This document shows, piece after piece, positions 7,200-55,497 of a DNA stretch of 64,000 nt (positions are counted from its first letter, which is position 1; every line of letters starts with the position of its first letter). The notes beneath the pieces were generated by a model, which saw only the letters and a program-made list of their open reading frames with translations, searched no databases and was not told the origin of the DNA. The stretch is from NCBI GenBank assembly GCA_009996615.1, contig JAACZU010000013.1, positions 27,990 through 91,989 of the forward strand. The letters run 5' to 3'. The DNA comes from Rhodanobacteraceae bacterium (GTDB lineage Bacteria; Pseudomonadota; Gammaproteobacteria; Xanthomonadales; Rhodanobacteraceae). A program made the position numbers and the translations under genes.

Positions 7200-7688
7200 G
7201 TGAACATCGAAGCAAACAAGGTCGTCTCGTTCCACTACACCGTCAGCGACGGCGGCGAGACGCCGGTCGATTCCTCGCGCGAGCGCGGCGAGCCGCTGAC
7301 CGTGCTGATCGGCCACGGCAACATCATCCCGGGCCTGGAGAAGGCGCTGCTCGGCCATGCCGTCGGCGACCGCATCGAGGTCAGCGTGGCGCCGGCCGAG
7401 GCCTACGGCGAGCGCCGCGCGAACTTCACCCAGCGCGTGCCGAAGAAGTACTTCGAACATCCCGAGCTGCTGCGCCCGGGCATGAGCACGGTGCTGAACA
7501 CGCGCGAATCCGGCCCGCGCATGGTCGTCGTGCACAAGATCGGCTCCAGCGTGATCGACGTCGACCTCAACCATCCGCTCGCCGGCAAGACGCTCGCGTT
7601 CGACGTCGAGATCACGGCCATCCGCGACGCGACGCCGGAAGAGATCGAGCACCGCCACGCGCACGGCGCGGGCGGGCATGAGCACTGA
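7200..7688 (+). CDS. slyD: FKBP-type peptidyl-prolyl cis-trans isomerase SlyD
   Basis: GTG start. VSFHYTVSDGGE...IPGLEKALLG FKBP fold plus a His-rich tail EHRHAHGAGGHEH. Confidence 0.9.
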   Translation: MNIEANKVVSFHYTVSDGGETPVDSSRERGEPLTVLIGHGNIIPGLEKALLGHAVGDRIEVSVAPAEAYGERRANFTQRVPKKYFEHPELLRPGMSTVLNTRESGPRMVVVHKIGSSVIDVDLNHPLAGKTLAFDVEITAIRDATPEEIEHRHAHGAGGHEH

Positions 7689-7694
7689 AAGGCC

Positions 7695-7982
7695 GGGAAT
7701 CGGGATTCGGGATTCGGGAATCGGTAGAGCGGGGCTTCACCGCGCCGCACGCTTGCGCAAGCTCTGATCGAGTCGTCGTCCCGGCGAAAGCCGGGACCCA
7801 AGGTGCTGCGCTCCGGGCATGATTTGCGCCGGATCTTCCCCGCCGTGGCGCTCCGAATCCAGGGATGACGTCATTCCCGCGAAAGCGGGAATCCATCCTT
7901 GGAGACCGACCAAAGTGCGCAGGAGTTGGATCAGGCAAAGCGCCCGCTTTTCCCAATCCCCAATCCCGTCTCCCCAATCCCC
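7695..7982. repeat. Composite palindromic element with heptamer-array arms (G-rich left, C-rich right) and internal GC hairpins
   Basis: Left arm GGGAATCGGGATTCGGGATTCGGGAATCGG (7695-7724). Right arm CCCAATCCCCAATCCCGTCTCCCCAATCCCC (7952-7982). Internal hairpins TCCCGGCGAAAGCCGGGA (7779-7796) and ATTCCCGCGAAAGCGGGAAT (7873-7892). Confidence 0.85.
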
Positions 7983-7986
7983 GCTG

Positions 7987-8475
7987 TCAAAGCACCCTCT
8001 TGCCGTAGGCGAAGCGTTCGCGCCACCAGCCGCCGTCGAGGCTGTCCAGGCGCACGGTGCCGCCGCTGTTGGGCGCGTGCACGAAGCGGCGCTCGCCGAC
8101 GTAGATGCCGACGTGGCTGATGCGGCGGCCGTCTTCGAAGAACACCAGGTCGCCGGCCTGCAGCGCGTCGCCAGCCAGCTTGTGGCGGCCGAGGTCGGCC
8201 AGCTCGCCGGAGCTGCGCGGCAGCGCGACGCCGGCGGCGTCGCGGAAGACATAGCCGACCAGGCCGCTGCAGTCGAAGCCGCCTTCGGGCGTGTTGCCGC
8301 CGTAGCGGTACGGCGTGCCGACCAGCGCGATCGCGCGGAACAGCACCGCATTGGCGGCGTCGGCGCGCGGCGTGCCGGGAGCGGGCGAGGGCGACGGCGC
8401 GCGGCGTGGCGCGGAACCGCAGGCGGCGAGCAGGCAGGCGAGGGAAAGCAGGGCGAGCAGGCGGCGGATCGTCAT
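7987..8475 (-). CDS. NlpC/P60 (C40) family lipoprotein peptidase
   Basis: Start at MTIRRLLALLSLACLLAAC (lipobox). Catalytic region GTPYRYGGNTPEGGFDCSGLVGYVF. Confidence 0.85.
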   Translation of the reverse strand: MTIRRLLALLSLACLLAACGSAPRRAPSPSPAPGTPRADAANAVLFRAIALVGTPYRYGGNTPEGGFDCSGLVGYVFRDAAGVALPRSSGELADLGRHKLAGDALQAGDLVFFEDGRRISHVGIYVGERRFVHAPNSGGTVRLDSLDGGWWRERFAYGKRVL

Positions 8476-8532
8476 GCGCCTACCGTTCCCGATCGCGCCG
8501 CGGTCTGTCAACGGGCCGGCAGCGGCGCCGGC

Positions 8533-8933: not shown

Positions 8934-10187
8934 ATGACCATGCGGACATCGGATGTGCTGGTGCTGGGCGGCGGCGTGATCGGCCTCGCCTGCGCGTACT
9001 ACCTGCTCGAGAGCGGGCGCAGCGTGACCGTGCTCGAGCAGGGCACGGCCGGCTGCGGCAGCTCGCACGGCAACTGCGGCACGCTGACGCCGAGCCACGC
9101 CGCGCCGCTGGCGATGCCGGGCACGATCGGCACCGCGTTGCGCTGGCTGTTCAAGGCCGATGCGCCGCTGCGCATCAAGCCGCGCCTCGATCCGGATCTG
9201 CTGCGCTGGCTGCTCGGCTTCGCCGGTCGTTGCAACTGGCGCGCGTTCGAGCACGCGCTGCGCGCCAAGGCGCCGCTACTGCTGCGCTCGCGTGCGCTGA
9301 TCGAGGAGCTCGTGCGCACCGAGCGGCTCGACTGCGAGTTCGAGGCGCTCGGCACGCTCAACGTGTACCGCGACGCGGCGAACTTCGAGCACGCCTGCGC
9401 ATTGAACGAGCGCCTCGCCGCGGTCGGCCTGCGGGTCGAGGTGCTCGATGGCGCCACCACGCTCGCGCGCGAGCCGGCACTGAAACCCGGCGTCGCCGGC
9501 GCGCTGTTCCATCCGGGCGACGCGCAGCTGCGGCCGGACCGCTACGTGGCCGAGCTCGCGCGCATCGTGCGCGAGAAGGGCGGCCTCATTGTCGAGGGCG
9601 CGCGGGTCGAGGCCTGCGTGCGCGAAGGCACGCGCATCGCGAAGGTCGCCACGACGCAGGGCGAATTCGCCGGCCGCGACCTCGTGCTGGCGCTCGGCTC
9701 GTGGTCGCCGCTGCTCGCGCGCACGCTCGGCCTGCGCATCCCGATCCAGCCCGGCAAGGGGTACTCGATCACCTACACGCGGCCGGCGCGCTGCCCGCGC
9801 ATCCCGCTGACGCTGAAGGAGCCGAGCGTGTGCGTGACCGCCTGGGGCTCCGGCTACCGGCTCGGCAGTACGATGGAGTTTGCCGGTTACGACGCGACGC
9901 TCAACCGCACGCGGCTGGACGCGCTCAGGCGCGGAGCGGCGGCGTTCCTGCACGAGCCGGAAGGGCCGGCCGTGGTCGAGGAATGGTACGGCTGGCGGCC
10001 GATGACGCCGGACGACCTGCCGGTGCTCGGCCGCGCGCCCGGCCTCGACAACCTGGTCATCGCGACCGGCCACGGCATGCTCGGCGTGACGATGTCGGCC
10101 GGCACCGGCCAGCTGGTCGGCGAGCTCGTCGCCGGCCGGCCGCCATCGCTCGACCTCTCGCCGTTCGCGCCCGCGCGCTTCGGTTGA
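8934..10187 (+). CDS. FAD-dependent oxidoreductase (D-amino-acid dehydrogenase-like)
   Basis: Start at MTMRTSDVLVLGGGVIGLACAYYL (dinucleotide-binding GxGxxG). DAO-family length and C-terminal ATGHGMLG motif. Confidence 0.85.
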   Translation: MTMRTSDVLVLGGGVIGLACAYYLLESGRSVTVLEQGTAGCGSSHGNCGTLTPSHAAPLAMPGTIGTALRWLFKADAPLRIKPRLDPDLLRWLLGFAGRCNWRAFEHALRAKAPLLLRSRALIEELVRTERLDCEFEALGTLNVYRDAANFEHACALNERLAAVGLRVEVLDGATTLAREPALKPGVAGALFHPGDAQLRPDRYVAELARIVREKGGLIVEGARVEACVREGTRIAKVATTQGEFAGRDLVLALGSWSPLLARTLGLRIPIQPGKGYSITYTRPARCPRIPLTLKEPSVCVTAWGSGYRLGSTMEFAGYDATLNRTRLDALRRGAAAFLHEPEGPAVVEEWYGWRPMTPDDLPVLGRAPGLDNLVIATGHGMLGVTMSAGTGQLVGELVAGRPPSLDLSPFAPARFG

Positions 10188-14038: not shown

Positions 14039-15706
14039 ATGAGAGTAGACGCACGCCTGAACCTTCTTGCTTCCGCGATAGCGTTCGCTATCGCTTCGCC
14101 GATGGCCGTTGCGGCGGACACGTTCTACGAACCGTTCACGATTCCGCCGCAAGGTTGCCCTGTGAGCATTACTGACTATCCTGGCGGTCCGGGCACCTAT
14201 CCCTTCCCGCCCGGTTGGACCTTGTTCAACGTGGACGGGCGAACTCCGGCCGGCGCCGTCGCCTATGTCAATGATGCCTGGGAGGCGCGCGAGGATTTCA
14301 AGTTCAACACGGCAAACTGCGCTGTATTCAGCACCTCCTGGTACAACCCGCCGGGTCAGGCTGATGACTGGATGTGGTCGCCGCCCATCACGGTTCCGGC
14401 GAGCGCGGTGCTGTCGTGGAATGCCGTGGCGTACGACCCGGCGTATCGCGATGGCTACGAGGTCCGCGTGAAGACCGGCGCCGCGCCGACCTTGGCCAAT
14501 CAGCTGACGAGCACCACGGTGTACAGCAATCCTGCCGAAGAGGCGGTCTGGACGCAGCGCTCCGTCGACATTTCCAGCTATGGCGGCCAGACCGTCTACG
14601 TCGGCTTCCGCAACAACAGCAACGACAAGTTCCTGCTGCTGGTCGACGATGTGCGCGTGAGAGACGTCGCCGCCGATGTCGCCGCGGTCGCGCAGGTTCC
14701 GCCCTTCACCAGCGAGTACGCGCGCGCGCCCCTGGGCATGGATGTCATGCCGACGCTGGCGCTGGGCGCGACCAACTCCGGGGTCGGAGTGCTGACGAAT
14801 GTCGTCGCCATCGCGACCCCGATGCTCGACGGCAACATCGGCGGTCCTGGCGTCGTTTCGACGACGGTGCCCACGCTGCCCGCTGGCGACACCACGCCAT
14901 TGACGTTCGGTGCGCCTGCCGCCTATTCGGGAGCTGGCACATGGAGCACGCGATACACCGTCAGCGTCGACCAGACGGAACCCGACGTCGCGAACAACAC
15001 GGTCGAGGTACCTGGCACCACGATCGGCGGCAACGAATTCGCGCGCTGGGAAGGAGCCGCGAGCGGCGCGCTCGGCATCGGTGCCGGCAATGGCGGCGAA
15101 ATGGGCGTGTCCTTTACGCTTCCGGTTGCGGGGTTCTACGCCGGTGCGCACTTCGCGATGGCGCCGGTCCCCCCCGAAAGCGGCACGCCGCCGGTGCCGA
15201 ATGCGTGCCCCGGGTTTGACTATGTGCTCAACCTGCGTGCATTCGACACGGTCAACAACGTGCCCGGCGCCATCATCGACACCACCACGCCGATTCCATG
15301 CGAGTACGACAGCGGCGGCAGTTACGACGTCGCCTTCGTGCACGGCCAACACGAGCTTGCCGCGGGCACCTATGTGCTGACGGCGGTCGAGCCCGTCGGC
15401 GGACCGACTTTGACGCTGCTGCTGCATGACCAGCGGTTCGTCGACGGAACGACCTGGGTGAACTGGCCGACCAGTCCGTTCGGTGGCTGGGCGCACAACG
15501 AGGACTTCGGCGTCGCCGCTTTCAAGAAGACCTACGAGTTGTCGTTGCTGCAGGGTGAGGCGCCGATCTTCGCCGATGGATTCGACGGTGCCGCACCGGC
15601 CAAGCCGTCGTTCCGCCCGATGCACGGTCCCGCCCCGGCGATTGTCCGCGGACGGCCGACGCGCTCGGTGCCGCCGGTCCAGTTCGCGCCCTCGGGCAAT
15701 CCGTAG
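14039..15706 (+). CDS. Secreted protein with N-terminal choice-of-anchor J / cleaved-adhesin-like domain
   Basis: SD AAGGGGGA 9-10 nt upstream of ATG 14039. Signal peptide MRVDARLNLLASAIAFAIASPMAVAA. Motif QADDWMWSPPITVP...YVGFRN is typical of that domain family. Confidence 0.65.
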   Translation: MRVDARLNLLASAIAFAIASPMAVAADTFYEPFTIPPQGCPVSITDYPGGPGTYPFPPGWTLFNVDGRTPAGAVAYVNDAWEAREDFKFNTANCAVFSTSWYNPPGQADDWMWSPPITVPASAVLSWNAVAYDPAYRDGYEVRVKTGAAPTLANQLTSTTVYSNPAEEAVWTQRSVDISSYGGQTVYVGFRNNSNDKFLLLVDDVRVRDVAADVAAVAQVPPFTSEYARAPLGMDVMPTLALGATNSGVGVLTNVVAIATPMLDGNIGGPGVVSTTVPTLPAGDTTPLTFGAPAAYSGAGTWSTRYTVSVDQTEPDVANNTVEVPGTTIGGNEFARWEGAASGALGIGAGNGGEMGVSFTLPVAGFYAGAHFAMAPVPPESGTPPVPNACPGFDYVLNLRAFDTVNNVPGAIIDTTTPIPCEYDSGGSYDVAFVHGQHELAAGTYVLTAVEPVGGPTLTLLLHDQRFVDGTTWVNWPTSPFGGWAHNEDFGVAAFKKTYELSLLQGEAPIFADGFDGAAPAKPSFRPMHGPAPAIVRGRPTRSVPPVQFAPSGNP

Positions 15707-20054: not shown

Positions 20055-20076
20055 GGGATTCGGGATTGGGGATTCG
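20055..20076. repeat. Solo G-rich heptamer arm
   Basis: GGGATTCGGGATTGGGGATTCG with no C-rich partner nearby. Confidence 0.7.
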
Positions 20077-29521: not shown

Positions 29522-31309
29522 ATGGCTGGCTACAAGATCCAGGAACACAAGGTCGACATCGTCGTCGTCGGCGCCGGCGGCGCCGGCCTGCGCGCCACCT
29601 TCGGCCTTGCCGCAACCGGCCTGCAGACGGCCTGCATCACCAAGGTCTTCCCGACGCGCTCGCATACCGTGGCCGCGCAGGGTGGCATCTCGGCCGCGCT
29701 CGGCAACATGGGCGAGGATGACTGGCGCTTCCACTTCTACGACACGATCAAGGGCTCCGACTGGCTCGGCGACCAGGACGCGATCGAGTACATGTGCAAG
29801 GAGGCGCCGGCCGCGATCATCGAGCTCGAGCACTACGGCGTGCCGTTCTCGCGCACCGACGAGGGCAAGATCTACCAGCGCCCGTTCGGCGGCATGACCA
29901 CGCACTACGGCAAGGGCACCGCGCAACGCACCTGCGCCGCGGCCGACCGCACCGGCCACGCGATCCTGCACACGCTCTACCAGCAGTCGCTCAAGCACGA
30001 CGCGCGCTTCTTCATCGAGTACTTCGCGCTCGACCTGATCTTCGACGACGAAGGCGCCTGCCGCGGCGTGCTCGCGCTCGACATGGCCGAAGGCACGCTG
30101 CACCTGTTCCGCGCGCACGGCGTCGTGCTGGCGACCGGCGGGTACGGCCGCGCCTACTTCAGCGCGACCTCGGCGCATACCTGCACCGGCGACGGCGGCG
30201 GCCTTGCGCTGCGCGCCGGCCTGCCGCTGCAGGACATGGAGTTCGTGCAGTTCCACCCGACCGGCATCTACGGCTCGGGCTGCCTGATCACCGAAGGCTC
30301 GCGCGGCGAGGGCGGCTACCTCACCAACTCGAAGGGCGAGCGCTTCATGGAGCGCTACGCGCCGAACGCGAAGGACCTCGCCTCGCGCGACGTCGTGTCG
30401 CGCTCGATGACGATCGAGATCCGCGAAGGCCGCGGCGTCGGCGAGCACCAGGACCACATCAACCTGAACCTGATGCACCTCGGCGCCGAGGTGCTGCACG
30501 AGAAGCTGCCGGGCATTTCCGAGTCCGCGCGCATCTTCGCCGGCGTCGACGTGACCAAGGAGCCGATTCCGGTCATCCCGACCGTGCACTACAACATGGG
30601 CGGCGTGCCGACCAACTACCACGGCGAAGTCGTGCGCAAGGTCGGCGACAACCCGGACGCGGTCGTGCCGGGCCTGTACGCGATCGGCGAGGCGGCCTGC
30701 GTGTCGGTGCATGGCGCCAACCGCCTCGGCTCCAACTCGCTGCTGGACCTGGTCGTGTTCGGCCGCGCGGTCGCACAGCGCTGCGCGGCGACGATCAAGC
30801 CGGGCCAGCCGCACAAGGAACTGCCGGCCTCGGCCTGCGACCAGGCGCTGGCGAACCTCGACCGCCTGCGCAATGCGAACGGCTCGACGCCGACTGCCGA
30901 GATCCGCCTGACGATGCAGAAGACGATGCAGGCCGATGCGGCGGTGTTCCGCACCGCCAGCACGCTGCAGGAAGGCTGCGCGAAGATGGACAAGGTGTTC
31001 GCCTCGTTCGAGGACGTGCGCGTGTCGGACCGCTCGCTGGTCTGGAACTCGGACCTGATCGAGACGCTGGAACTGCAGAACCTGCTCTACAACGCGGTCG
31101 CGACGATCAACTCGGCCGAGCAGCGCCACGAGAGCCGCGGCGCGCATGCGCGCGAGGACTTCCCGGAGCGCGACGACGAGAACTGGATGAAGCACACGCT
31201 GGTCACGGTCGATGCGAAGGGCAAGTGTGCATTCGACTTCCGCCCGGTGCACATGAACACGCTGACCAGCGACGTCGAGCCGGTGCCGCCGAAGAAGCGC
31301 GTCTACTGA
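29522..31309 (+). CDS. sdhA: Succinate dehydrogenase flavoprotein subunit
   Basis: [12 protein letters not shown], covalent-FAD region SHTVAAQGG, and [13 protein letters not shown]. Confidence 0.97.
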
Positions 31310-31313
31310 AGAG

Positions 31314-31391
31314 CCGGGATTCGGGATGAGGGACGGGATTCGTTTCCGGCCCGCTTTTTCCGAATCCCGAATCTCGAATCCCGAATCCCGG
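31314..31391. repeat. Minimal heptamer-arm hairpin element between sdhA and sdhB
   Basis: CCGGGATTCGGGATGAGGGACGGGATTCG ... CCGAATCCCGAATCTCGAATCCCGAATCCCGG. The outer ~14 bp are perfectly complementary. The right arm ends 8 nt before the sdhB ATG. Confidence 0.85.
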
Positions 31392-31398
31392 AATCAAC

Positions 31399-32837: not shown

Positions 32838-32839
32838 GC

Positions 32840-32950
32840 CCTCCCCTTCAAGGGGAGGGTTGGGTGGGGATGGTGTTCGGTTTTCGCGTCATCGTCTCCG
32901 CGAAAACCGACCCGCATCCATGCGTTTTCCGCTCGCATCCCTGCGAGCGG
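32840..32950. repeat. Cluster of REP-like GC hairpins
   Basis: CCCTCCCCTTCAAGGGGAGGG followed by GTTGGGTGGGGATGG. Also CGGTTTTCGCG...CGCGAAAACCG and CCGCTCGCATCCCTGCGAGCGG. Confidence 0.6.
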
Positions 32951-36251: not shown

Positions 36252-36510
36252 GGGATTGGGGATTGGGGATTGGGGATTCGGCGTTTTGCGGCGTGAATCC
36301 TCGCTCGATACCCAGATGATTGCTCTTGCTCGTCATCCCGGCGAAAGCCGGGATCCAGCGTCTGGCTCTTCAGGCGCCTGAAGGCACCGGAGTCCCCCGT
36401 CTGCCGCGACGGGCCGGGGATTTCGAGGCATCCTCTTACCCGTTATGTCATCGAAGCGGATCACGATGAGCGAGCTTTTCCCCAATCCCCAATCCCCAAT
36501 CTCCAATCTC
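36252..36510. repeat. Composite heptamer-arm element between fabH and fabD
   Basis: Left arm GGGATTGGGGATTGGGGATTGGGGATTCGG (36252-36281). Internal hairpin ATCCCGGCGAAAGCCGGGAT (36335-36354). Right arm CCCCAATCCCCAATCCCCAATCTCCAATCTC (36480-36510). Confidence 0.85.
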
Positions 36511-37434
36511 GGCTTCGTGTTTCCCGGCCAAGGCTCGCAGTCGCTCGGCATGCTGGCCGAACTGGCCGCCGCGCATGCCGGCGTGCGCGAAACCTTCGCC
36601 GAGGCGTCCGAGGGCGCCGGCGTCGACCTGTGGACGCTGGCGCAGGACGGCCCGGAAGCGCAGCTCAACCGCACCGAATTCACCCAGCCGGCACTGCTCG
36701 CGGCCGGCGTGGCGGTCTGGCGCGCGTGGCTGGCGGCTGGCGGCCCGGTGCCGGCGCGGCTGGCCGGGCACAGCCTCGGCGAATACACCGCGCTGGTCGC
36801 GGCCGGCGTGCTCTCGCTGCACGATGCGGCGCGCCTCGTGCGCCTGCGCGGCCAGTTGATGCAGGACGCGGCGCCGGAAGGCGTCGGCGCGATGGCGGCC
36901 GTGCTCGGCGCAGACGATGCGCTGGTCGAGGAGGTCTGCCGCGAGGTCTCCGGCGACCACGTGGTGACGCCGGCGAACTACAACTCGCCCGGCCAGATCG
37001 TGATCGGCGGCCATGCGCAGGCGGTCGATGCGGCGCTGGCTAAGCTGTCCGAGCGCGGCGTGCGCAAGGCGGTCAAGCTCGCCGTCAGCGTGCCCTCGCA
37101 CACGCCGCTGATGCGCGGGGCGGCCAACCGGCTGGCCGAGGCGATCGAGGGTTACGCCTGGAGCCAGCCGCAGATCCCGGTCGTGCAGAATGTCGATGCG
37201 CGCGTGCACGCGGACCTCGCCGGGATCCGCGATGCGCTGGTGCGCCAGCTCTACCTGCCGGTGCGCTGGACCGAATGCGTGCAGGCGCTCGCCGCCGCCG
37301 GCGCGACGCGCATCGCCGAATGCGGTCCGGGCAAGGTGCTCGCCGGCCTGGTCAAGCGCATCGACAAGACGCTCGACGGCCGCGCGCTCGGCACGCCGGG
37401 CGACTTCGACGCCGCGCTGGCCGACTGGCGCTAG
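36445..37434 (+). CDS. fabD: Malonyl CoA-ACP transacylase
   Basis: FVFPGQGSQS and GHSLGEYTAL motifs. The only in-frame ATGs (36445, 36466) lie upstream of or inside the repeat right arm, so the start is uncertain. Confidence 0.9.
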   Translation: MSSKRITMSELFPNPQSPISNLGFVFPGQGSQSLGMLAELAAAHAGVRETFAEASEGAGVDLWTLAQDGPEAQLNRTEFTQPALLAAGVAVWRAWLAAGGPVPARLAGHSLGEYTALVAAGVLSLHDAARLVRLRGQLMQDAAPEGVGAMAAVLGADDALVEEVCREVSGDHVVTPANYNSPGQIVIGGHAQAVDAALAKLSERGVRKAVKLAVSVPSHTPLMRGAANRLAEAIEGYAWSQPQIPVVQNVDARVHADLAGIRDALVRQLYLPVRWTECVQALAAAGATRIAECGPGKVLAGLVKRIDKTLDGRALGTPGDFDAALADWR

Positions 37435-37440
37435 CGAGAC

Positions 37441-37500
37441 GAGAAAAGAGTGCGGAGGAGTGAGAAACGAGTCCGCTTTCTGCTGGTTTCCCACTTCTCT
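37441..37500. repeat. GAGAAAC-type palindromic element
   Basis: GGAGTGAGAAACGAGT (left) and GGTTTCCCACTTCTC (right). The same 16-17-mer recurs in inverted orientation at 50559-50596. Confidence 0.6.
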
Positions 37501-37587
37501 TGACTGTTTTCTGCGTTCTGCGCGCTCTACGCGCGGCGGCGCATTTCTTGTAAGGTTCGCGGCCTCGATTCACTGAAGGCGGACACG

Positions 37588-40140: not shown

Positions 40141-40421
40141 GGAAAAGCGAAGCTGGACACGGATCGACGCGGAAAGACGCGGATAAAGCATTTCGGTGTG
40201 TTGATCCACGTCAGCCGCTTGAAGCCCCTCTCCCTCCGGGAGAGGGGTTGGGGAGAGGGTTCGGGCGAAGCACGACGCGCAACTCTTGCGTATGCCCCAA
40301 CCCTCTACGTCGCCCGAACCCTCATCCGGCCCTTCGGGCCACCTTCTCCCGAAGGGAGAAGGAAAAGGCCCGCGAGATCCAATCCGTGTCCATCCGCGTT
40401 GATCCGCGTCCAGGCGTTTCC
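40141..40421. repeat. Composite REP/MITE-like element with GATCCGCG-type inverted ends and internal CCCTCTCC hairpins
   Basis: Ends GGACACGGATCGACGCGGA (left) and TCCGCGTTGATCCGCGTCC (right) are inverted. Internal CCCCTCTCCCTCCGGGAGAGGGG followed by TTGGGGAGAGGGTTCGGGCGA, with its inverted copy TCGCCCGAACCCTC. Confidence 0.7.
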
Positions 40422-40441: not shown

Positions 40442-41797
40442 ATGATCCACCACGTCAGCCGCGAAATCGCCGGCATCCGCGACCTGCTGCCGCTCGCCGC
40501 CGCGCAGCCGCAGCGTTATCCGGGCCTGCTCGAGAGCGTCGCGCGCGGCAACGCGCGCGCGCGCCACGACATCCTGTTCGCGTTTCCGGAGGATGTGCTG
40601 CGGCTGGACGCCGACGGCGTGCGCGATGCGCACGGCCGGCCGGCCGGCGCGCGTTTCCTCGAGGCGCTCGACGCGCACTGGCAGGCCGCGCGCCTGCCGC
40701 GCGGCGACGCGCTCGAACTGCCGTTCCGCGGCGGCTGGCTGCTGTACCTGGGCTACGAACTCGCCGCCGAGGTCGAGCCGAGCCTGCGCCTGCCGGCGCC
40801 GCGCACGCCATTGCCGACCGCGCTCGCGCTGCGCTGTCCGGCCGCGATCATCGTCGACCACGAGCGCGGCTCGACCTGGCTGGTCGCCGAGCCCGGCCGC
40901 GCGGAGCTGCTCGATCGGCTGCAGGCCGATCTCGATGCGCCCGCCGCCGCGGTCGAGGCCGCGCCGCTGGCGGCCGCGCTCGACGAGGACGCACCGCAGG
41001 CATTCCTCGATGGCGTCGCGCGCGTGCACGAGCACCTGCGCGCCGGCGACGTGTTCCAGGTCAACCTGTCGCGCGAATGGCGCGCGCGCTGCGCGCCGGC
41101 GCCGCCGCCGGCCGCGTTGTACGCCGCATTGCGGCGCGCGAACCCGGCGCCGTTCGCGGCGCTGCTGCAGGCCGAGGAGTGGGCCATCGCCAGTTCCTCG
41201 CCCGAGCGCCTGATCGAGATCCGCGGCGACATCGCGCAGACGCGGCCGATCGCCGGCACGCGCCCGCGCGCGAGCGGCGAGGCCGACGCGGCGAACCTGC
41301 GCGAGCTGGTCGGCCATCCAAAGGAGCGCGCCGAGCACGTCATGCTGATCGATCTCGAACGCAACGACCTCGGCCGCATCTGCGTGCCGGGCAGCGTCGT
41401 CGTCGACGAGGTCATGGTGGTCGAAAGCTACGCGCACGTGCACCACATCGTCTCCAACGTGCGCGGCCGCCTGCAGGGCGGCGTCACGCCGGGCGAGGCG
41501 ATCCGCGCGGTATTCCCGGGCGGCACGATTACCGGCTGCCCGAAGGTGCGCTGCATGCAGATCATCGCCGCGCTCGAGCAGGTCGGCCGCGGCGCCTACA
41601 CCGGCTCGCTCGGCTACCTCAACCGCGACGGTGACCTCGACCTCAACATCCTGATCCGCACGCTGACCCTGCACGGCGACACCGTCAGCCTGCGCGCCGG
41701 CGCCGGCATCGTGGTCGACTCGATCGCCGAGCGCGAGCTCGACGAAACGCGCGCGAAGGCGCGCGGCATGCTGAGAGCGTTGGGGGCTGGGGATTAG
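40442..41797 (+). CDS. pabB: Aminodeoxychorismate synthase component I
   Basis: Chorismate-binding C-terminal motifs PGGTITGCPK and GAYTGSLGY. 451 aa. Confidence 0.85.
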   Translation: MIHHVSREIAGIRDLLPLAAAQPQRYPGLLESVARGNARARHDILFAFPEDVLRLDADGVRDAHGRPAGARFLEALDAHWQAARLPRGDALELPFRGGWLLYLGYELAAEVEPSLRLPAPRTPLPTALALRCPAAIIVDHERGSTWLVAEPGRAELLDRLQADLDAPAAAVEAAPLAAALDEDAPQAFLDGVARVHEHLRAGDVFQVNLSREWRARCAPAPPPAALYAALRRANPAPFAALLQAEEWAIASSSPERLIEIRGDIAQTRPIAGTRPRASGEADAANLRELVGHPKERAEHVMLIDLERNDLGRICVPGSVVVDEVMVVESYAHVHHIVSNVRGRLQGGVTPGEAIRAVFPGGTITGCPKVRCMQIIAALEQVGRGAYTGSLGYLNRDGDLDLNILIRTLTLHGDTVSLRAGAGIVVDSIAERELDETRAKARGMLRALGAGD

Positions 41798-41929
41798 GGT
41801 TGGGGGCTGGGGCGCGAAGACTGGCGACCGGACCAAGCTGGCAGCGGTGCTATAAGTGCCGTGCACAGCAAGTCCTGAAACGGCGCGCGGTTGTCGAGCC
41901 CCAACGCCCAGCCCCTAGCCCCTAACCCC
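41782..41929. repeat. Variant heptamer-arm element (GGGGCTR/GGGATTA type)
   Basis: Left arm GGGGGCTGGGGATTAGGGTTGGGGGCTGGGG (41782-41812). Right arm CCCCAACGCCCAGCCCCTAGCCCCTAACCCC (41899-41929). Confidence 0.8.
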
Positions 41930-41953
41930 TGGCTGCGGTTACGCTGGCACGCT

Positions 41954-44638: not shown

Positions 44639-45004
44639 ATGGCCACGCCGGCAATGGGCGGAGCACCGCGACAGGGCATCCTGTCGCTCGCGATCAAGGA
44701 CAAGGGCGCGCTGTTCAACGCCTACATGCCGTTCGTGCGCGGCGGCGGCCTGTTCGTGCCGACCGCCAAGCGCTACAGCCTCGGCGACGAGGTGTTCATC
44801 CTGTTGTCGCTGATGGACGAGAAGGATCGCCTGCCGGTCGCCGGCAAGGTCATCTGGATCACCCCGCCCGGCGCGCAGGGCAACCGCATGGCCGGCATCG
44901 GCGTGCAGTTCAACGACTCCGCCGACGGCGAAGCCGCGCGCACCAAGATCGAATCGATCCTCGCCGGCATCCTGACCCAGGAACGGCCGACGCATACGAT
45001 GTAA
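44639..45004 (+). CDS. pilZ: Type IV pilus assembly protein PilZ
   Basis: QGILSLAIKDKGALFNAYMPFVRGGGLFVPT...VIWITPPGAQGNRMAGIGVQF resembles Xanthomonas PilZ as I recall it. Same position after holB. Confidence 0.8.
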   Translation: MATPAMGGAPRQGILSLAIKDKGALFNAYMPFVRGGGLFVPTAKRYSLGDEVFILLSLMDEKDRLPVAGKVIWITPPGAQGNRMAGIGVQFNDSADGEAARTKIESILAGILTQERPTHTM

Positions 45005-45009
45005 AGACC

Positions 45010-45197
45010 GGGATTGGGGATTCGGGATTGGGGATTCGGAAGAGCCTCACACCCTCGTCGTCCCGGCGAAGGCCGGGACCCAGTGTCTTCGATCCACAGC
45101 AAGGCCAGGAGCTGGATCCCGGCCTTCGCCGGGACGACGGAGTGGAAGGTGGCGACGGAGTCGGGAGCTTTAGCCAATCCCGAATCCCCAATCCCGG
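45010..45197. repeat. Composite heptamer-arm element (complete copy)
   Basis: Left arm GGGATTGGGGATTCGGGATTGGGGATTCGG (45010-45039). Internal mutually inverted hairpins TCCCGGCGAAGGCCGGGA (45061-45078) and TCCCGGCCTTCGCCGGGA (45117-45134). Right arm CCAATCCCGAATCCCCAATCCCGG (45174-45197). Confidence 0.85.
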
Positions 45198-45202
45198 CCC
45201 TT

Positions 45203-45637
45203 CTACAATGCCGCGCGCGCGTACTGGCGGATCTTCTCCAGCATCGCCGCGAAGCCGTTCGAGCGCGTCGGCGACAGGTGCTTGGCGAGGCCGATCGCCT
45301 CGATGAAGTGCGGTTCGGTGGCGAGGATCTCCTCGGCCGAGCGGCCCGAATACACGCGCAGCAGCAGCGCGATCAGGCCGGACACGATCGACGAGTCGCT
45401 GATCGCCTCGAACTCGAGGCGGTGCGCGTCGCCGTGCGGGACCAGCCAGACCTGCGACTGGCAGCCGCTGACCTTCCATTGATCGATCTTCGCGGCCTCC
45501 GGGAACGGAGGCAGCTTGCGGCCGAGGTCGATCAGGTACTGGTAGCGCTCGGTCCAGTCGCCGAAGAAACCGAACTCCTCGACGATCGCGGCCTGCGCTT
45601 CCTCGGCGCTGGCGGTGGTTTCAAGCGGGGCATTCAT
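45203..45637 (-). CDS. sufE: SufE-family cysteine desulfuration protein
   Basis: Conserved Cys in [11 protein letters not shown]. Confidence 0.88.
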
Positions 45638-48023: not shown

Positions 48024-48127
48024 TTTACCTCTGCGCGGCTCCCTCCGCGCAAGAGCAAAACCGGCCATCCATGGATTTACCTGTGCGCGGATCCATCCAC
48101 GCAAAGAAAAACTGGCCATCCATGGCC
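48024..48127. repeat. Imperfect tandem duplication (2 x ~52 bp) upstream of argF'
   Basis: TTTACCTCTGCGCGGCTCCCTCCGCGCAAGAGCAAAACCGGCCATCCATGGA followed by TTTACCTGTGCGCGGATCCATCCACGCAAAGAAAAACTGGCCATCCATGGCC. Confidence 0.75.
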
Positions 48128-48156: not shown

Positions 48157-49194
48157 ATGACAACTCGACATTTCCTCAGCACCCAGGACTGGTCCCGCGC
48201 CGAGCTCGACGCGCTGCTCGCGCAGGCGGCCGCGTTCAAGCGTTCCAGGGCCGGCAGCCAGCTCGCCGGCAAGTCGATCGCGCTGCTGTTCTTCAACCCC
48301 TCGATGCGCACGCGCACCAGCTTCGAGCTCGGCGCGTTCCAGCTCGGCGGCCACGCGATCGTGCTGCAGCCGGGCAAGGACGCGTGGCCGATCGAGTTCG
48401 AGGTCGGCACGGTCATGGACGGCGAGGCGGAGGAACACGTCGCCGAGGTCGCGCGCGTGCTGTCGCGCTACGTCGACCTGATCGGCGTGCGCGCGTTCCC
48501 GAAGTTCCAGGACTGGTCGGTCGACCGCGAGGACCGCGTGATCCACGCGTTCGCGAAGCATTCGACGGTGCCGGTGATCAACATGGAGACGATCACGCAC
48601 CCGATGCAGGAGCTGGCTCACATCCAGGCGCTGTGGCAGCACTTCGGCGGCGCCACCCCGGGCGAGGCGCTGCGCGGCAGGAAGTACGTATTGACCTGGA
48701 CGTACCACCCCAAGCCCCTGAACACCGCGGTCGCGAACTCCGCGCTGCAGATCGCCACGCGCTACGGCATGGACGTGACCTTGCTGTGCCCGACCGAGGA
48801 CTACCTGCTCGATCCGCGCTACATGGAGTTCGCGAAGCAGAACGTCGCCGACAACGGCGGCTCGCTGACGATCAGCCACGACCCGGCGAGCGCCTACCGC
48901 GGCGCGCACGTCGTCTACGCCAAGAGCTGGGGCGCGCTGCCGTACTTCGGCCGCTGGGCCGACGAAAAGCCGATCCGCGATGCGCACAAGCACTTCATCG
49001 TCGACGAAGCCAAGATGGCGCTGACTGACCACGGCGTGTTCAGCCACTGCCTGCCGCTGCGCCGCAACGTCAAGGCGACCGACGCGGTCATGGACTCGCC
49101 CGCGTGCATCGCGATCGACGAGGCCGAGAACCGGTTGCATGTGCAGAAAGCGGTGATGGCGCAGCTTGCTGCGCAAGCAGGGAATCGGGAATAG
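48157..49194 (+). CDS. argF: N-acetylornithine carbamoyltransferase (AOTCase-type ArgF')
   Basis: FFNPSMRTRTSFELGAFQLGGHA, PVINMETITHP.QELAH, LTWTYHPKPLNTAVANSAL and HCLPLRRNVKATD are nearly collinear with the X. campestris AOTCase as I recall it. The stop TAG lies inside a repeat arm. Confidence 0.9.
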   Translation: MTTRHFLSTQDWSRAELDALLAQAAAFKRSRAGSQLAGKSIALLFFNPSMRTRTSFELGAFQLGGHAIVLQPGKDAWPIEFEVGTVMDGEAEEHVAEVARVLSRYVDLIGVRAFPKFQDWSVDREDRVIHAFAKHSTVPVINMETITHPMQELAHIQALWQHFGGATPGEALRGRKYVLTWTYHPKPLNTAVANSALQIATRYGMDVTLLCPTEDYLLDPRYMEFAKQNVADNGGSLTISHDPASAYRGAHVVYAKSWGALPYFGRWADEKPIRDAHKHFIVDEAKMALTDHGVFSHCLPLRRNVKATDAVMDSPACIAIDEAENRLHVQKAVMAQLAAQAGNRE

Positions 49195-49315
49195 GGAATA
49201 GGGAATCGTCAAAGCAGGCTTTCGTACGCATCAGTCTCTACTTCATTTCACCCATCTCTCGGACGCCGTCATGTCGAACGCTTCCACCATTCCCCATTCC
49301 CAATTCCCAATTCCC
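49180..49315. repeat. Heptamer-arm element (GGGAATA/GGGAATC type) bridging argF' and argG
   Basis: Left arm GGGAATCGGGAATAGGGAATAGGGAATCG (49180-49208). Right arm CCATTCCCCATTCCCAATTCCCAATTCCC (49287-49315). Confidence 0.85.
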
Positions 49316-50521
49316 GCCTCCGGAGAGCGCCAAGACATAGTCTTGGCGTTCTCCGGAGGATTGGACACCAGCTTCTGCGTGCCCTACCTGAAGGAGCGCG
49401 GCTGGGCCGTGCACACGGTGTTCGCCGACACCGGTGGCGTCGACGCGGAGGAGCGCGCGTACATCGAGCAGCGCGCGCACGAACTCGGCGTCGCCTCGCA
49501 CGTGACCGTCGACGGCGGTCCGGCGATCTGGGACGGCTTCGTCAAGCCGTTCGTCTGGGCCGGCGAGGGTTATCAAGGCCAGTATCCGCTGCTGGTGTCG
49601 GACCGCTACCTGATCGTCGACGCCGCGCTCAGGCGCTGCGCCGAGCTCGGCACGCGCGCGATCGCGCACGGCTGCACCGGCATGGGCAACGACCAGGTGC
49701 GCTTCGACCTCGCGGTCAAGGCGCAGGGCGACTACGAGATCGTCGCGCCGATCCGCGAGATCCAGAAGGAGCACACCGAGGTGCGCGCGTACGAACAGAA
49801 GTACCTCGAAGAGCGCGGCTTCGGCGTGCGCGCCAAGCAGAAGGCCTACACGATCAACGAGAACCTGCTTGGACTCACGATGTCCGGCGGCGAGATCGAC
49901 CGCTGGCAGGCGCCGGGCGAGGGCGCGCGTGGCTGGTGCAAGTCGCGCGCGGAATGGCCGACCGCGCCGCTGCGCGTGAAGCTGACCTTCGCCCACGGCG
50001 AGGCGGTCGCGCTCGACGGCGCGAAGATCGCCGGCCACGAACTGCTGGCCAGGCTCAACGGCCTGTTCGCGCAGTACGGCGTCGGCCGCGGTATCTACAC
50101 CGGCGACACGACGATCGGCCTCAAGGGTCGCATCATCTTCGAGGCGCCCGGCCTGGTCGCGCTGCTGACCGCGCATCGCGCGCTGGAAGAGGCGGTGCTG
50201 ACCAAGCAGCAGAACCGCTTCAAGCCCGACGTCGCGCGCAAGTGGGTCGAGCTGGTCTACGAAGGCTTCTTCCACGATCCGCTCAAGACCGACCTCGAGG
50301 CGTTCCTTGCCTCGAGCCAGGTCACGGTCAACGGCGACGTCGTGCTCGAGACCAGCGGCGGCAGCGTCAGCGCGGTCGCAATCGAGTCGAAGCACATCCT
50401 CAACGCCAAGGGCGCGACCTATGCGCAGGCCGCCGACTGGGGCGTCGCCGAGGCCGAAGGCTTCATCAAGCTGTTCGGCATGAGCTCGACGTTGTGGGCG
50501 CAGGTGAATGCGAAGGAATGA
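49271..50521 (+). CDS. argG: Argininosuccinate synthase
   Basis: [19 protein letters not shown]-binding motif. 416 aa. N-terminal codons 6-15 are repeat-derived. Confidence 0.94.
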
Positions 50522-53974: not shown

Positions 53975-54012
53975 CCCGCCAGCTTCGGTGAGCTGGCAGC
54001 AGTAGCTCGTCG

Positions 54013-54216
54013 CCCCGGCGAAGGCCGGGGCCCAGTGCCTCTCCAGATCGCTGAAGACGCTGGGTCCCGGCCTTCGCCGGGACGACGAGAATGTAGGCTT
54101 TCGCAAATCCGCATTCCCCAATCCCCAACCCGAACCCTGCTTTTTCGCCCCAAGCGCGAAACGGAGCACCGATGAACGGCTCTTCCGAATCCCCAATCCC
54201 GAATCCCGAATCCCGG
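54013..54216. repeat. Partial composite element: two internal hairpins plus two C-rich arms, no G-rich arm
   Basis: Hairpins CCCCGGCGAAGGCCGGGG (54013-54030) and TCCCGGCCTTCGCCGGGA (54065-54082). C-rich arms at 54105-54137 and 54185-54216. Confidence 0.8.
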
Positions 54217-55497
54217 CTCCTATGGCAAAAAGAAGGCACCCGCACCGACGAGCGCATCATGCGTTTCCTCGCCGGTGACGACGTGATCCTCGACCGCGAG
54301 TTCTTCCTGCACGACATCGAGGCGAGCCAGGCGCACGTCGGCGGGCTCGCCAACATCGGCATCATCAGCGACGACGAGCGCGCCACGATCGTGCGCGAGC
54401 TCGAGGTGCTCGCCGACGACTTCCGCGCCGGCCGCTTCGTGCTCGACGAGCGCTACGAGGACGGCCATTCGGCGATCGAGGCGCGCCTGACCGAGCGCCT
54501 GGGCGATGCCGGCCGCAAGGTGCACACCGGGCGCAGCCGCAACGACCAGATCCTGGTCGCCACGCGCCTGTGGCTGAAGGCCAAGCTGGCCGAGCTGTTC
54601 GAGGCCTGCCGCGCCGCGGCGCAGGTCTGCCTCGAGCGCGCTGCCGGCGAGGCGCTGCCGCTGCCGGGCTACACGCACCTGCAGCGCGCGGTGGTGTCGT
54701 CGACCGCGCTGTGGTTCGCCGGCTTCGCCGAAGCGTTCATCGACGACGCCCGTCGCGCGCGCGACACGCTGGCCTGGCTCGACGCGAACCCGCTCGGTAC
54801 CGCGGCCGGCTATGGCGTGAACCTGCCGCTCGACCGCGCGCACACGACGCAGGCGCTCGGCTTCGCGCGCATGCAGGTCAACCCGGTCTACGCGCAGCTC
54901 TCGCGTGGCAAGTTCGAGATCGGCGCGCTCGACGCGCTCGGCAGTGCGCTGCTCGACCTGCGCCGGCTGGCCTGGGACCTGTCGCTGTTCACGACCGCCG
55001 AATACGGCTTCGTGCAGCTGCCGGCCGAGTACACGACCGGCAGTTCGATCATGCCGAACAAGCGCAATCCCGACGTGGTCGAGCTGATGCGCGCGAGCTA
55101 TGCCAGCGTCGCCGCGGCGCGCACCGAGATCGAGCAGCTGCTGTCGCTGCCGTCCGGCTACCAGCGCGACCTGCAGTTCTCCAAGGGCGCGATCTTCCAC
55201 GGCTTCCATCGTGGTCTCGACGCGCTCGCGTTGCTGCCGGACCTGCTCGCGCGGATGCAGTGGAACGCACCGGCAATGCGCGCGGCGATCGAGCCGTCGA
55301 TGTACGCGACCGACGTCGCGATCGAGCAGGCCGCCGCCGGCGTGCCGTTCCGCGAGGCATACCGCCAGGCGGCCGAAGCCGCGGCGACGGCCGGGCAGGG
55401 GCGCACGCCGGAAACGAGCCTGGCCGCGCGCGTGTCACCCGGTGCGACGGCCGACCTTTGCCTCGACGAGCTGCGCGCGCGGCTGGCCGCCTTGTAG
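54172..55497 (+). CDS. argH: Argininosuccinate lyase
   Basis: TGRSRNDQ and the [12 protein letters not shown] signature. N-terminal [11 protein letters not shown] is encoded by a repeat arm. Confidence 0.93.

Follow-up and report, generated by a model that had tools for sequence, protein, structure and literature searches.

The stretch at 7695-7982, which lies between two convergent genes and holds an array of G-rich heptamers, an imperfect C-rich counterpart and two GC hairpins, raises the question of what kind of arrangement this is, which of its properties is conserved and whether it belongs to a repeat family that has already been described. The initial annotation regarded it as the archetype of a REPIN/MITE-like family of palindromic elements with G-quadruplex (G4)-competent arms, without deciding whether the family had been described. 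We have analysed the locus together with the rest of the window, i.e., the whole 64-kb stretch of DNA, and with loci from related bacteria (referred to by L numbers). The interpretation given in the annotation is, as a whole, partly supported.

Anatomy of the locus between slyD and the nlpC/P60 gene

The locus takes up the whole gap (7689-7986) between slyD, which encodes an FKBP-type SlyD-like isomerase (7200-7688, + strand, stop codon 7686-7688) and forms the left flank, and an nlpC/P60 lipoprotein gene (7987-8511, - strand, stop codon 7987-7989), which forms the right flank. The G-rich arm module (7689-7733, + strand) begins 1 nt past the slyD stop and consists, on the + strand, of an outer cap AAGGCC (7689-7694), the four units GGGAATC GGGATTC GGGATTC GGGAATC (7695-7722) and, directly 3' of the units, an inner cap GGTAGAGC with which the module ends at 7733. 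The partner, C-rich arm module (7943-7986, G-rich on the - strand) ends 1 nt short of the nlpC/P60 stop. On the - strand, the module opens with CAGC after the nlpC stop, succeeded by the units GGGGATT GGGGAGA CGGGATT GGGGATT (7952-7982) and then by GGGAAAAGC, its inner cap reading GCTTTT on the + strand, where the same array (7952-7982) is of the CCCAATC type with a period of 7 and 4.4 copies. An inverted-repeat search paired 7692-7733 with 7943-7984 over 42 nt at 76% complementarity, with 209 nt between them. Nested between the arms are two REP-type GC hairpins, viz. GTCGTCCCGGCGAAAGCCGGGACCC (7775-7799, + strand) and GTCATTCCCGCGAAAGCGGGAATCC (7870-7894, + strand), both in the same orientation. 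No intrinsic-terminator-like site (a GC-rich stem followed by a T/U run) was found in 7600-8100 on either strand.

The description in the initial annotation of a (GGGAWTC)4 left arm and an imperfect C-rich complement enclosing two GC hairpins is borne out by these coordinates. Its treatment of 7695-7982 as one archetypal element is not, as the locus is a composite of two arm modules, flush with the slyD and nlpC/P60 stops, and of two separate REP-type hairpins located between them.

Heptamer arms across the window

Our analyses have identified 15 arms in the window, forming 6 inverted pairs and 3 singles, and an arm is present at every site where the initial annotation had placed its approximately 15 related copies. 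Thirteen of the arms are period-7 arrays detected by TRF and two more were recognised by eye. The period-7 units reported by TRF are CGGGAAT, GGGATTG, CCGAATC and similar; copy number in the 13 TRF arms is 3.0-5.0 (3.9-4.4 in 8 of the 13), with a mode of four units, and the commonest units in the window are GGGATTG and GGGATTC, not GGGAATC. The two-unit pattern GGGRWTBGGGRWTB (at most 1 mismatch) has 47 matches in the window compared with 0.9 for shuffled sequence, and the canonical G4 motif (G3+N1-7 x4) occurs 15 times against 2.2 +/- 1.6, with 13 of the 15 motifs being arms. A single arm is itself a direct tandem array lacking self-complementarity, and complementarity is found only between one arm and another. 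The 5' arm is G-rich in 6 of the 6 pairs, on either strand, as had been claimed for complete copies. The spacing between arms varies from 14 to 230 nt, and the inter-arm sequence is unrelated from copy to copy.

The arrays occupy 6 co-directional and 2 convergent gaps and none of the approximately 9 divergent gaps in the window, which is a small sample. Arms begin 4-7 nt past the stops at 7688, 31309, 36245 and 45004 and, on the - strand, at 7987 and 45203; the stop codon falls within the arm at 41797 and 49194, and C arms lie at or within the starts of sdhB, fabD, argG and argH.

The sdhA-sdhB gap contains a minimal pair (31314-31395), with a G arm at 31314-31345, a 14-nt loop and a C arm at 31360-31395, flanked by the sdhA stop (31307-31309) and the sdhB ATG (31399); its predicted RNA fold has a dG of -48.9 kcal/mol (z -4.4). 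The fabH-fabD pair (36252-36508) has a G arm at 36252-36279, which reads (GGGATTG)3 GGGATTC, a REP hairpin at 36332-36356 and a C arm at 36479-36508 that lies within the fabD ORF (ATG 36466, sequence MSELFPNPQSPISNLGFVFPGQG). The pabB-mltG pair (41782-41930) is of a GGGGCT/GGGGTT subtype and has the pabB stop TAG (41795-41797) inside its G arm. The pair between the pilZ-domain gene and sufE (45010-45196) lies between convergent genes (pilZ stop 45002-45004; sufE stop 45203-45205, - strand) and contains an inverted doublet of REP hairpins (45057-45081, + strand; 45114-45138, - strand), and the argF-argG pair (49180-49315) is of a GGGAAT subtype, with a G arm at 49180-49207 and a C arm at 49288-49315. 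Among the single arms, a three-unit arm at 20055-20075 (+ strand) is C-rich on the - (sense) strand just 5' of a hemN-like gene, in a co-directional gap after a DUF498 gene. The other two are on the - strand and C-rich on the + strand: a degenerate arm (54106-54137) located 5' of argH, next to a REP-hairpin doublet (54009-54033, + strand; 54062-54086, - strand), and an arm (54185-54215) within the argH ORF, whose ATG at 54172 is preceded by GGAG.

Relationship to a published repeat family and identity of the host

A search of the whole window at Rfam gathering thresholds matched no family. However, heptamer repeats of the type GGGAATC/(GGGANTN)n have been described from Xanthomonas campestris and X. 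axonopodis by Rehm, Wurmthaler, Li, Frickey and Hartig (PLoS ONE 2015; PMC4692102), with a consensus GGGANTN in which positions 1-4 and 6 are conserved and at least 2 units are present. The two Xanthomonas genomes contain 186 (Xcc) and 183 copies, most often of four units, and 70 and 75 convergent inverted pairs (Rehm et al., 2015; PMC4692102). The G-rich strand is located there within 50 nt past stops (sense) or within 50 nt 5' of ORFs (antisense), some of the repeats overlap stop codons, and repeats are scarce between divergent ORFs (Rehm et al., 2015; PMC4692102). Because the unit, the four-unit mode, the convergent pairs, the placement at stops and starts and the absence from divergent gaps all match, the locus very probably belongs to this xanthomonad GGGNATC heptamer-repeat family. 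The competition between stem-loop and G4 was explicitly raised by these authors, who left the function open (Rehm et al., 2015; PMC4692102), and no functional follow-up was found among the papers citing their work. The heptamer arms, their palindromic pairing, their G4/i-motif competence and the competition between folds were thus all published in 2015, and our finding of them is a rediscovery. The proposal in the initial annotation of a dispersed inverted-array family with a C-rich partner, in which arm pairing would compete with G4 folding, is accordingly supported but had already appeared in that paper, and the question of a previous description, which the annotation had left open, is answered, as the repeat is in substance already catalogued there. 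The same units GGGAATC and GGGATTC are also listed in Xanthomonas MLVA schemes as polymorphic 7-nt repeats which change by single units. Among the intergenic repeats of prokaryotes, a period of seven is the most abundant, for a reason that is stated to be open (PMC6344855).

The FabF protein of the window is 93% identical to that of Dokdonella MAGs, and the gene order fabH-fabD-...-fabF-pabB-mltG-...-pilZ is common to Dokdonella, Rudaea and other Rhodanobacteraceae. The identification of the host, a soil bacterium, as a Dokdonella-like member of the Rhodanobacteraceae (order Lysobacterales), and not as Xanthomonas, is well supported by these sequence comparisons. The genome of Xcc is approximately 5.1 Mb in size, and its 186 repeats correspond to a density of approximately 0.04 per kb, against approximately 0.23 arms per kb in the window, which is about 5-fold higher. 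Since Rehm et al. (2015; PMC4692102) reported that they had not found the repeats in other gamma-proteobacteria, the window extends the host range of the family beyond Xanthomonas, with blooms in certain lineages. Over 21 kb, the window and a JGI contig (L165) are 100% identical, and no within-species polymorphism in array copy number was seen, the arrays of L081, L082 and L165 being identical.

Arm modules, caps and inner hairpins

Twenty arms from the window and from relatives were aligned at their array boundaries. This alignment revealed an outer cap consisting of a purine-rich run ending in GCC, with a C at position -1 in 19 of the 20 arms, and an inner cap GGNAARGC located 3' of the array. 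The caps are common to the Rudaea-type GGGACTC arrays (L007) and the Luteimonas GTGATTC array, and searches with the cap patterns GCCGGGWWTBGG and GGGWWTBGGNAARGC gave matches beside full arrays only, with no one-unit "proto-elements". An arm module is made up of a purine-rich outer cap ending in GCC, 3-5 GKGA-NNN heptamers and the inner cap GGNAARGC, and two such modules stand convergently, flush with the ORF ends of a co-directional or convergent gap, the material between them, REP-type GC hairpins included, being unrelated. The GC hairpin GTCRTYCCSGCGAARGCSGGRAYCC occurs 7 times in the window against 0 expected, in every case in an array-bearing gap, and forms two inverted doublets; the hairpin of the fabH-fabD gap is absent from L163 and L166. 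These inner GC hairpins are a REP-type family separate from the heptamer arms and placed in their loops.

Arms read as coding sequence

Arms extend across start and stop codons, and the C arms are predicted from their reading frames to encode N-terminal codons of FabD, ArgG and ArgH. In argG (ATG 49271), the C arm at 49288-49315 corresponds to codons 7-15, and the native start region of this gene is enclosed by the arms of the argF-argG pair. The G arm of the same pair (49180-49207) supplies the stop of the argF-like (OTCase-family) gene, the predicted C-terminus being …AQAGNRE* in the window, …QRGSGIGD* in L164 and …AHQ* in the array-free L001. In argH, the native ATG is retained 3' of the arm in L164; the window has lost approximately 17 nt including that ATG, and the gene starts at ATG 54172. 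The reading frame from the upstream ATG is kept in 4 of 4 array-bearing variants of FabD and 3 of 3 of ArgG. One example of an arm-encoded peptide predicted among FabD, ArgG and ArgH is SELFPNPQSPISN.

The overrun of start and stop codons, with the putative translation of the arms, is an addition to the published description of the family and it also affects annotation, as the starts of one and the same argG and fabD sequences differ between the JGI and NCBI gene calls. The NCBI calls correspond to the extended proteins; on identical DNA, the JGI calls give a truncated ArgG (386 aa), in which the strand bearing the SGGLDTS motif is lost, and a longer FabD. In L013, the ATG at 14808 leaves 84 nt to the motif.

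Presence and absence of arms in relatives

The number of arms is 15 in the 64 kb of the window and 4 in 13 kb of L164, which is approximately 88-90% identical to the window at the nucleotide level, and none are present in 21 kb of the syntenic Dokdonella soli. In L001 and L029, no arrays were found in the gaps syntenic to array-bearing ones; the fabH-fabD gap is 5 nt long in L029 (TGAGCCCATG) versus >200 nt in the window. The slyD-nlpC gap is reduced to 3 nt in L096, holds GC-hairpin-plus-T-run terminators in L083 and L086, partial arms in L093-L095, a minimal pair in L103 (four units, 38 nt, four units) and, in L087, two paired arms of AGGGGCT units around a REP hairpin. Other sites at which arrays recur are the N-terminus of fabD in Rudaea (L006), the N-terminus of argG in Luteimonas terrae (L013) and the 3' end of pilZ in L004. 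Presence/absence polymorphism at orthologous sites, which the initial annotation had proposed to look for, is real, and it is accompanied by a lineage-specific bloom.

The bloom and the caps together indicate a sequence family that is copied by some route, and the main rival explanation is that the arms belong to non-autonomous mobile elements (MITE- or REPIN-like), the heptamer arrays serving as terminal inverted repeats for a transposase encoded elsewhere in the genome. This explanation would account for the bloom in the window and L164 as against Dokdonella soli, L001 and L029, for the patchy presence at slyD-nlpC, for non-repeat caps that are conserved across loci and taxa and never occur without arrays, and for the location of 7 of 7 REP hairpins in array-bearing gaps. 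We nevertheless consider it unlikely, as comparisons of filled with empty sites revealed no target-site duplication at fabH-fabD (filled in the window, L163 and L166; empty in L029), at argF-argG (filled in the window and L164; empty in L001 and L167) or at slyD-nlpC (window, L103 and L094 versus L096, L083 and L086). The inter-arm sequences are, moreover, unrelated among copies and non-homologous between relatives with 97-99% identity in the flanking genes, the loops of the window, L163 and L166 failing to align despite flanks that are 94-99% identical, and arms bracket native sequence such as the argG start region. Single arms are common, neither a transposase nor a RAYT (IS200/IS605-like TnpA) gene was seen adjoining any arm of the window in a non-exhaustive scan, and in Xanthomonas 83-90% of the positions are conserved between Xcc and Xac, without any association with IS elements (Rehm et al., 2015; PMC4692102).

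The REPIN/MITE-like inference drawn in the initial annotation is not supported, in view of the lack of target duplications, the non-homologous loops and the native start codons found within arms. A single insertion bounded by terminal inverted repeats (i.e., a MITE) is rejected because target duplications are lacking and native start regions lie between the arms, and the conserved internal sequence or discrete length class of a MITE is likewise not seen (14-230 nt, unrelated loops). Nor are the arms REPs, an arm being a direct tandem array and not a short imperfect palindrome; the nested GC hairpins do have this palindromic feature.

Pairing of arms versus G-quadruplex formation

All of the pairs fold arm-to-arm in the predicted minimum free energy structure. 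For the 304-nt slyD-nlpC gap, dG is -157 kcal/mol on the + strand and -162 kcal/mol on the - strand (z -6.9 and -7.3), and the z-scores of the other pairs range from -4.4 to -10.9. Across 14 pairs from the window and relatives, the complementarity of arms to their own partners exceeds that of 100000 of 100000 random re-pairings; pair-specific subtypes among the window pairs alone are not significant (73 of 720 permutations). Both arms have changed together at fabH-fabD, where the unit is GGGATT in the window and L163 and GGGAAT in L166, and at argF-argG, where it is GGGAAT in the window and GGGATT in L164. Relatives also contain inverted pairs that are incompetent for G4, viz. GTGATTC in Luteimonas terrae (L013), GTGAGAC in Rudaea (L006), and GTGAGTA and GTGAAAC in L150, in which complementarity is kept, approximately 3-4 units are present and the arms are flush with stops or starts. 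The GTGATTC array of L013 has the same inner cap as the GGG-type arms, and no further arrays of this unit were found beyond its argF-argG site among 166 loci. The core GKGA is common to all of the GGG- and GTGA-type units, and in every array with an inverted partner, in the window and in relatives, the arm richer in G than in C is 5', with zero exceptions.

These comparisons point to arm-to-arm pairing, and not G4, as the property that is conserved among relatives. The existence of natural variants that are G4-dead and keep pairing, orientation and placement, which is a second addition to the published description, makes it more likely that the function resides in the stem than in the quadruplex. 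The initial annotation had stated that the G-rich arms match the canonical G4 motif, and 13 of the 15 do, where chance would give 2.2 motifs over the window as a whole. A role for G4 (with the i-motif) as the selected property, acting on DNA or RNA near ORF ends, for example by pausing or terminating RNA polymerase or ribosomes, with pairing being secondary, would also accord with the mode of four units, the fewest that can form an intramolecular G4, and with circular dichroism, by which Rehm et al. (2015; PMC4692102) observed a K+-dependent G4 of (GGGAATC)4 and i-motif-like spectra of the C strand, the oligonucleotides being (GGGAATC)4 and (GGGAATC)3GGG and not the GGGATTG/GGGATTC units that prevail in the window. 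We regard this explanation as quite unlikely, as the G4-incompetent GTGA-type pairs share the architecture, the orientation rule, the number of approximately four units and the inner cap (L013), and selection for G4 does not require that both arms change in concert. With a partner arm nearby, a duplex of at least 28 bp would form and, after synthesis of both arms, should prevail over a three-tetrad G4. In addition, RNA-seq data for Xac show transcript starts and stops to be enriched at repeats of at least 4 units irrespective of the transcribed strand, G-rich or C-rich (Rehm et al., 2015; PMC4692102), a pattern that agrees more readily with a duplex than with an RNA G4.

It is very unlikely that the arrays are a neutral by-product without function, accumulating where they are tolerated in genomes with a tendency to 7-nt replication slippage. 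Xanthomonas does contain many heptamer microsatellites, of diverse unit sequence, that change by single units, and heptamers are the predominant intergenic period of prokaryotes (PMC6344855), but slippage alone gives no inverted partners with matched units and leaves the strict G-first orientation, the caps, the placement near stops and the absence from divergent gaps unexplained. A sponge of GGA sites for CsrA/RsmA was considered, but the GTGA-type relatives are devoid of GGA, and an explanation of the arm orientation in terms of telomere-like ends or cassette boundaries has no support.

Proposed explanation

Our best reading of the paired arms is that they constitute a transcribed intergenic stem-loop module; to the explanation as a whole, comprising family identity, anatomy, mechanism and evolution, we assign a probability of roughly 55%. 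The gap would be transcribed together with the neighbouring genes, and the G-rich arm, emerging first, would pair with the C-rich arm in a stem of approximately 30-40 bp, by which the intergenic RNA would be sealed off. Such a stem may act in the manner of REP/BIME elements as a 3'-end barrier, a processing site or a terminator substitute for the upstream cistron and, where it abuts a start codon, may modulate translation of the downstream gene, with G4 competence presumably being incidental to the GGG-type units and not the conserved feature. The arrays would change via 7-nt slippage, the complementarity of the arms could be kept by selection or by hairpin-templated correction, and arms would at times overrun stop or start codons and so be translated. 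REP/BIME elements have roles in the protection of mRNA 3' ends, RNase III has a length requirement for double-stranded RNA, and quasipalindromes are known to be corrected by template switching. That the modules function through an RNA stem, by analogy with REP/BIME, has in our view slightly less than an even chance. A role as terminator substitute is supported by the slyD-nlpC gap, which in the relatives noted above holds ordinary terminators or is only 3 nt long and in the window lacks a terminator-like site.

Several observations count against this stem model. Stems with 200-nt loops fold slowly and a G4 could form first, and pairing is not available to the three single arms of the window. 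The bloom, like the conserved caps, points to the copying of a sequence family, which slippage plus selection leave unexplained, and a trans factor of defined sequence specificity could lie behind the GKGA core that is common to all unit types. A broader and more speculative proposal, which is probably incorrect as a whole, is that the GGG-type arrays are one branch of a wider Lysobacterales class of capped, inverted GKGA-NNN pairs that spread in blooms, with their complementarity kept through a sequence-specific factor that recognises GKGA or through active, templated maintenance; these pairs would clamp the intercistronic RNA, setting the upstream stop beside the downstream start, and would time and again overrun coding ends and rewrite protein termini. 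If true, such a class would offer a concrete handle on why heptamers are so abundant between prokaryotic genes (PMC6344855).

Comparison with known systems

The REP/BIME elements and REPINs of Enterobacteria and Pseudomonas resemble the arms in being dispersed, transcribed, extragenic palindromes that lie past stops in co-directional or convergent gaps, are avoided in promoter regions and are species-specific. However, a REP is a hairpin of 20-35 nt and a REPIN consists of two REPs at a fixed spacing that are mobilised by a RAYT, whereas the arms described here are tandem arrays at variable spacing with no known RAYT, and it is the nested GTCRTYCCSGCGAARGCSGGRAYCC hairpins, not the arms, that are the REP-like family of these gaps. 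Bacterial MITEs (e.g., the Correia elements of Neisseria) share with the arms terminal inverted repeats, intergenic sites, many copies and presence/absence differences; unlike them, the present pairs have no target-site duplication, conserved interior or size class, they enclose native start regions, and solo arms are frequent.

The name STRR (short tandemly repeated repetitive) originated with the heptamers of Calothrix. Cyanobacterial STRR heptamers, such as GGGGA(C/T)T in Nostoc PCC 7120, are likewise intergenic, tandem, G-run heptamers with G4 competence and they have been analysed alongside the Xanthomonas family; those of Nostoc PCC 7120 differ in having few inverted pairs and a much larger intragenic fraction, in their unrelated host and in showing no evidence of common caps. 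The MLVA (VNTR) loci of Xanthomonas have the same units as the window, but they have been treated solely as markers, with pairing and placement unconsidered.

The closest system is that of the Xanthomonas repeats (Rehm et al., 2015; PMC4692102), with which the window agrees in the unit GGG(A)(W)T(N), the four-unit mode, the convergent pairs, the placement and the G4/i-motif competence (here as a sequence motif only), and from which it differs in host, in density and in the prevalence of GGGATTG/GGGATTC units. The caps, the G4-incompetent relatives, the concerted switching of both arms, the predicted translation of arms and the nested REP hairpins are features that the published description of that family does not contain.

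REP-type hairpins in the array-bearing gaps

Our analyses have identified a family of GC hairpins of the REP type (GTCRTYCCSGCGAARGCSGGRAYCC) that is present in 7 copies in the window, where 0 are expected. All 7 copies are confined to four gaps, each of which also carries heptamer arrays: two are located in the slyD-nlpC gap (7775-7799 and 7870-7894), one in the fabH-fabD gap (36332-36356), and the remaining four form two inverted doublets (45057-45081 with 45114-45138 on the minus strand, and 54009-54033 with 54062-54086 on the minus strand), an arrangement that is REPIN-like. Related copies of this hairpin are found in three other loci (viz. L087, L106, and L164), and the close relatives L163 and L166 lack the fabH-fabD copy. 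Comparison of L166 (432-1468) with the window (36481-37517) reveals mosaic identity, fabD being 93.5% identical vs. 98-99% for the flanking fabH and fabG-acpP stretches, which suggests that a segment including the repeat-bearing gap was imported by recombination.

Heptamer arrays at gene boundaries

The start codons of argG (49271-50521; proteins P0024/P0028) and fabD (36466-37434; proteins P0019/P0022) are ambiguous because heptamer arrays sit in the 5' ends of these genes. For the same DNA, the NCBI and JGI calls place different starts, giving ArgG proteins of 416 and 386 aa and FabD proteins of 322 and 329 aa, respectively; the 386 aa ArgG call loses the conserved AFSGGLDTS strand. At argH, about 17 nt holding the native start (ATGACCGACCT) in the relative L164 (12010-12080) are missing from the window (54172-54230), where the reading frame instead begins further upstream, at 54172, and runs across the C-rich array. 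Also in the arginine cluster, a 52-nt tandem duplication (48024-48125; 2 copies, 86% matches), each copy containing a short GCGCGG…CCGCGC inverted repeat, is located upstream of an OTCase-family gene and may represent a regulator binding region.

L150, a metagenomic relative that is more distant (60% identity in SlyD), has arrays at 8256-8319, 9767-9949, and 14821-14846: inverted heptamer pairs with a different unit at each locus (GTGAAAC, GTGAGTA) flank an ntrC-like gene, one pair overlapping its stop codon, and a lone CTCGGGA array lies 3' of a different stop codon.

Other G-rich hairpin elements

Further dispersed G-rich hairpin elements occur in the window at 32838-32875 and 40225-40360. 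One element of this kind, CCCTCCCCTTCAAGGGGAGGGTTGGGTGGGGATGG, lies directly 3' of a stop codon and another, CCCTCTCCCTCCGGGAGAGGGGTTGGGGAGAGGG, has its partner downstream; these two explain both of the G4-motif matches in the window that fall outside the arms. Near-identical counterparts are present in L106 and in the G4 list for Xanthomonas campestris (Rehm et al., 2015; PMC4692102).
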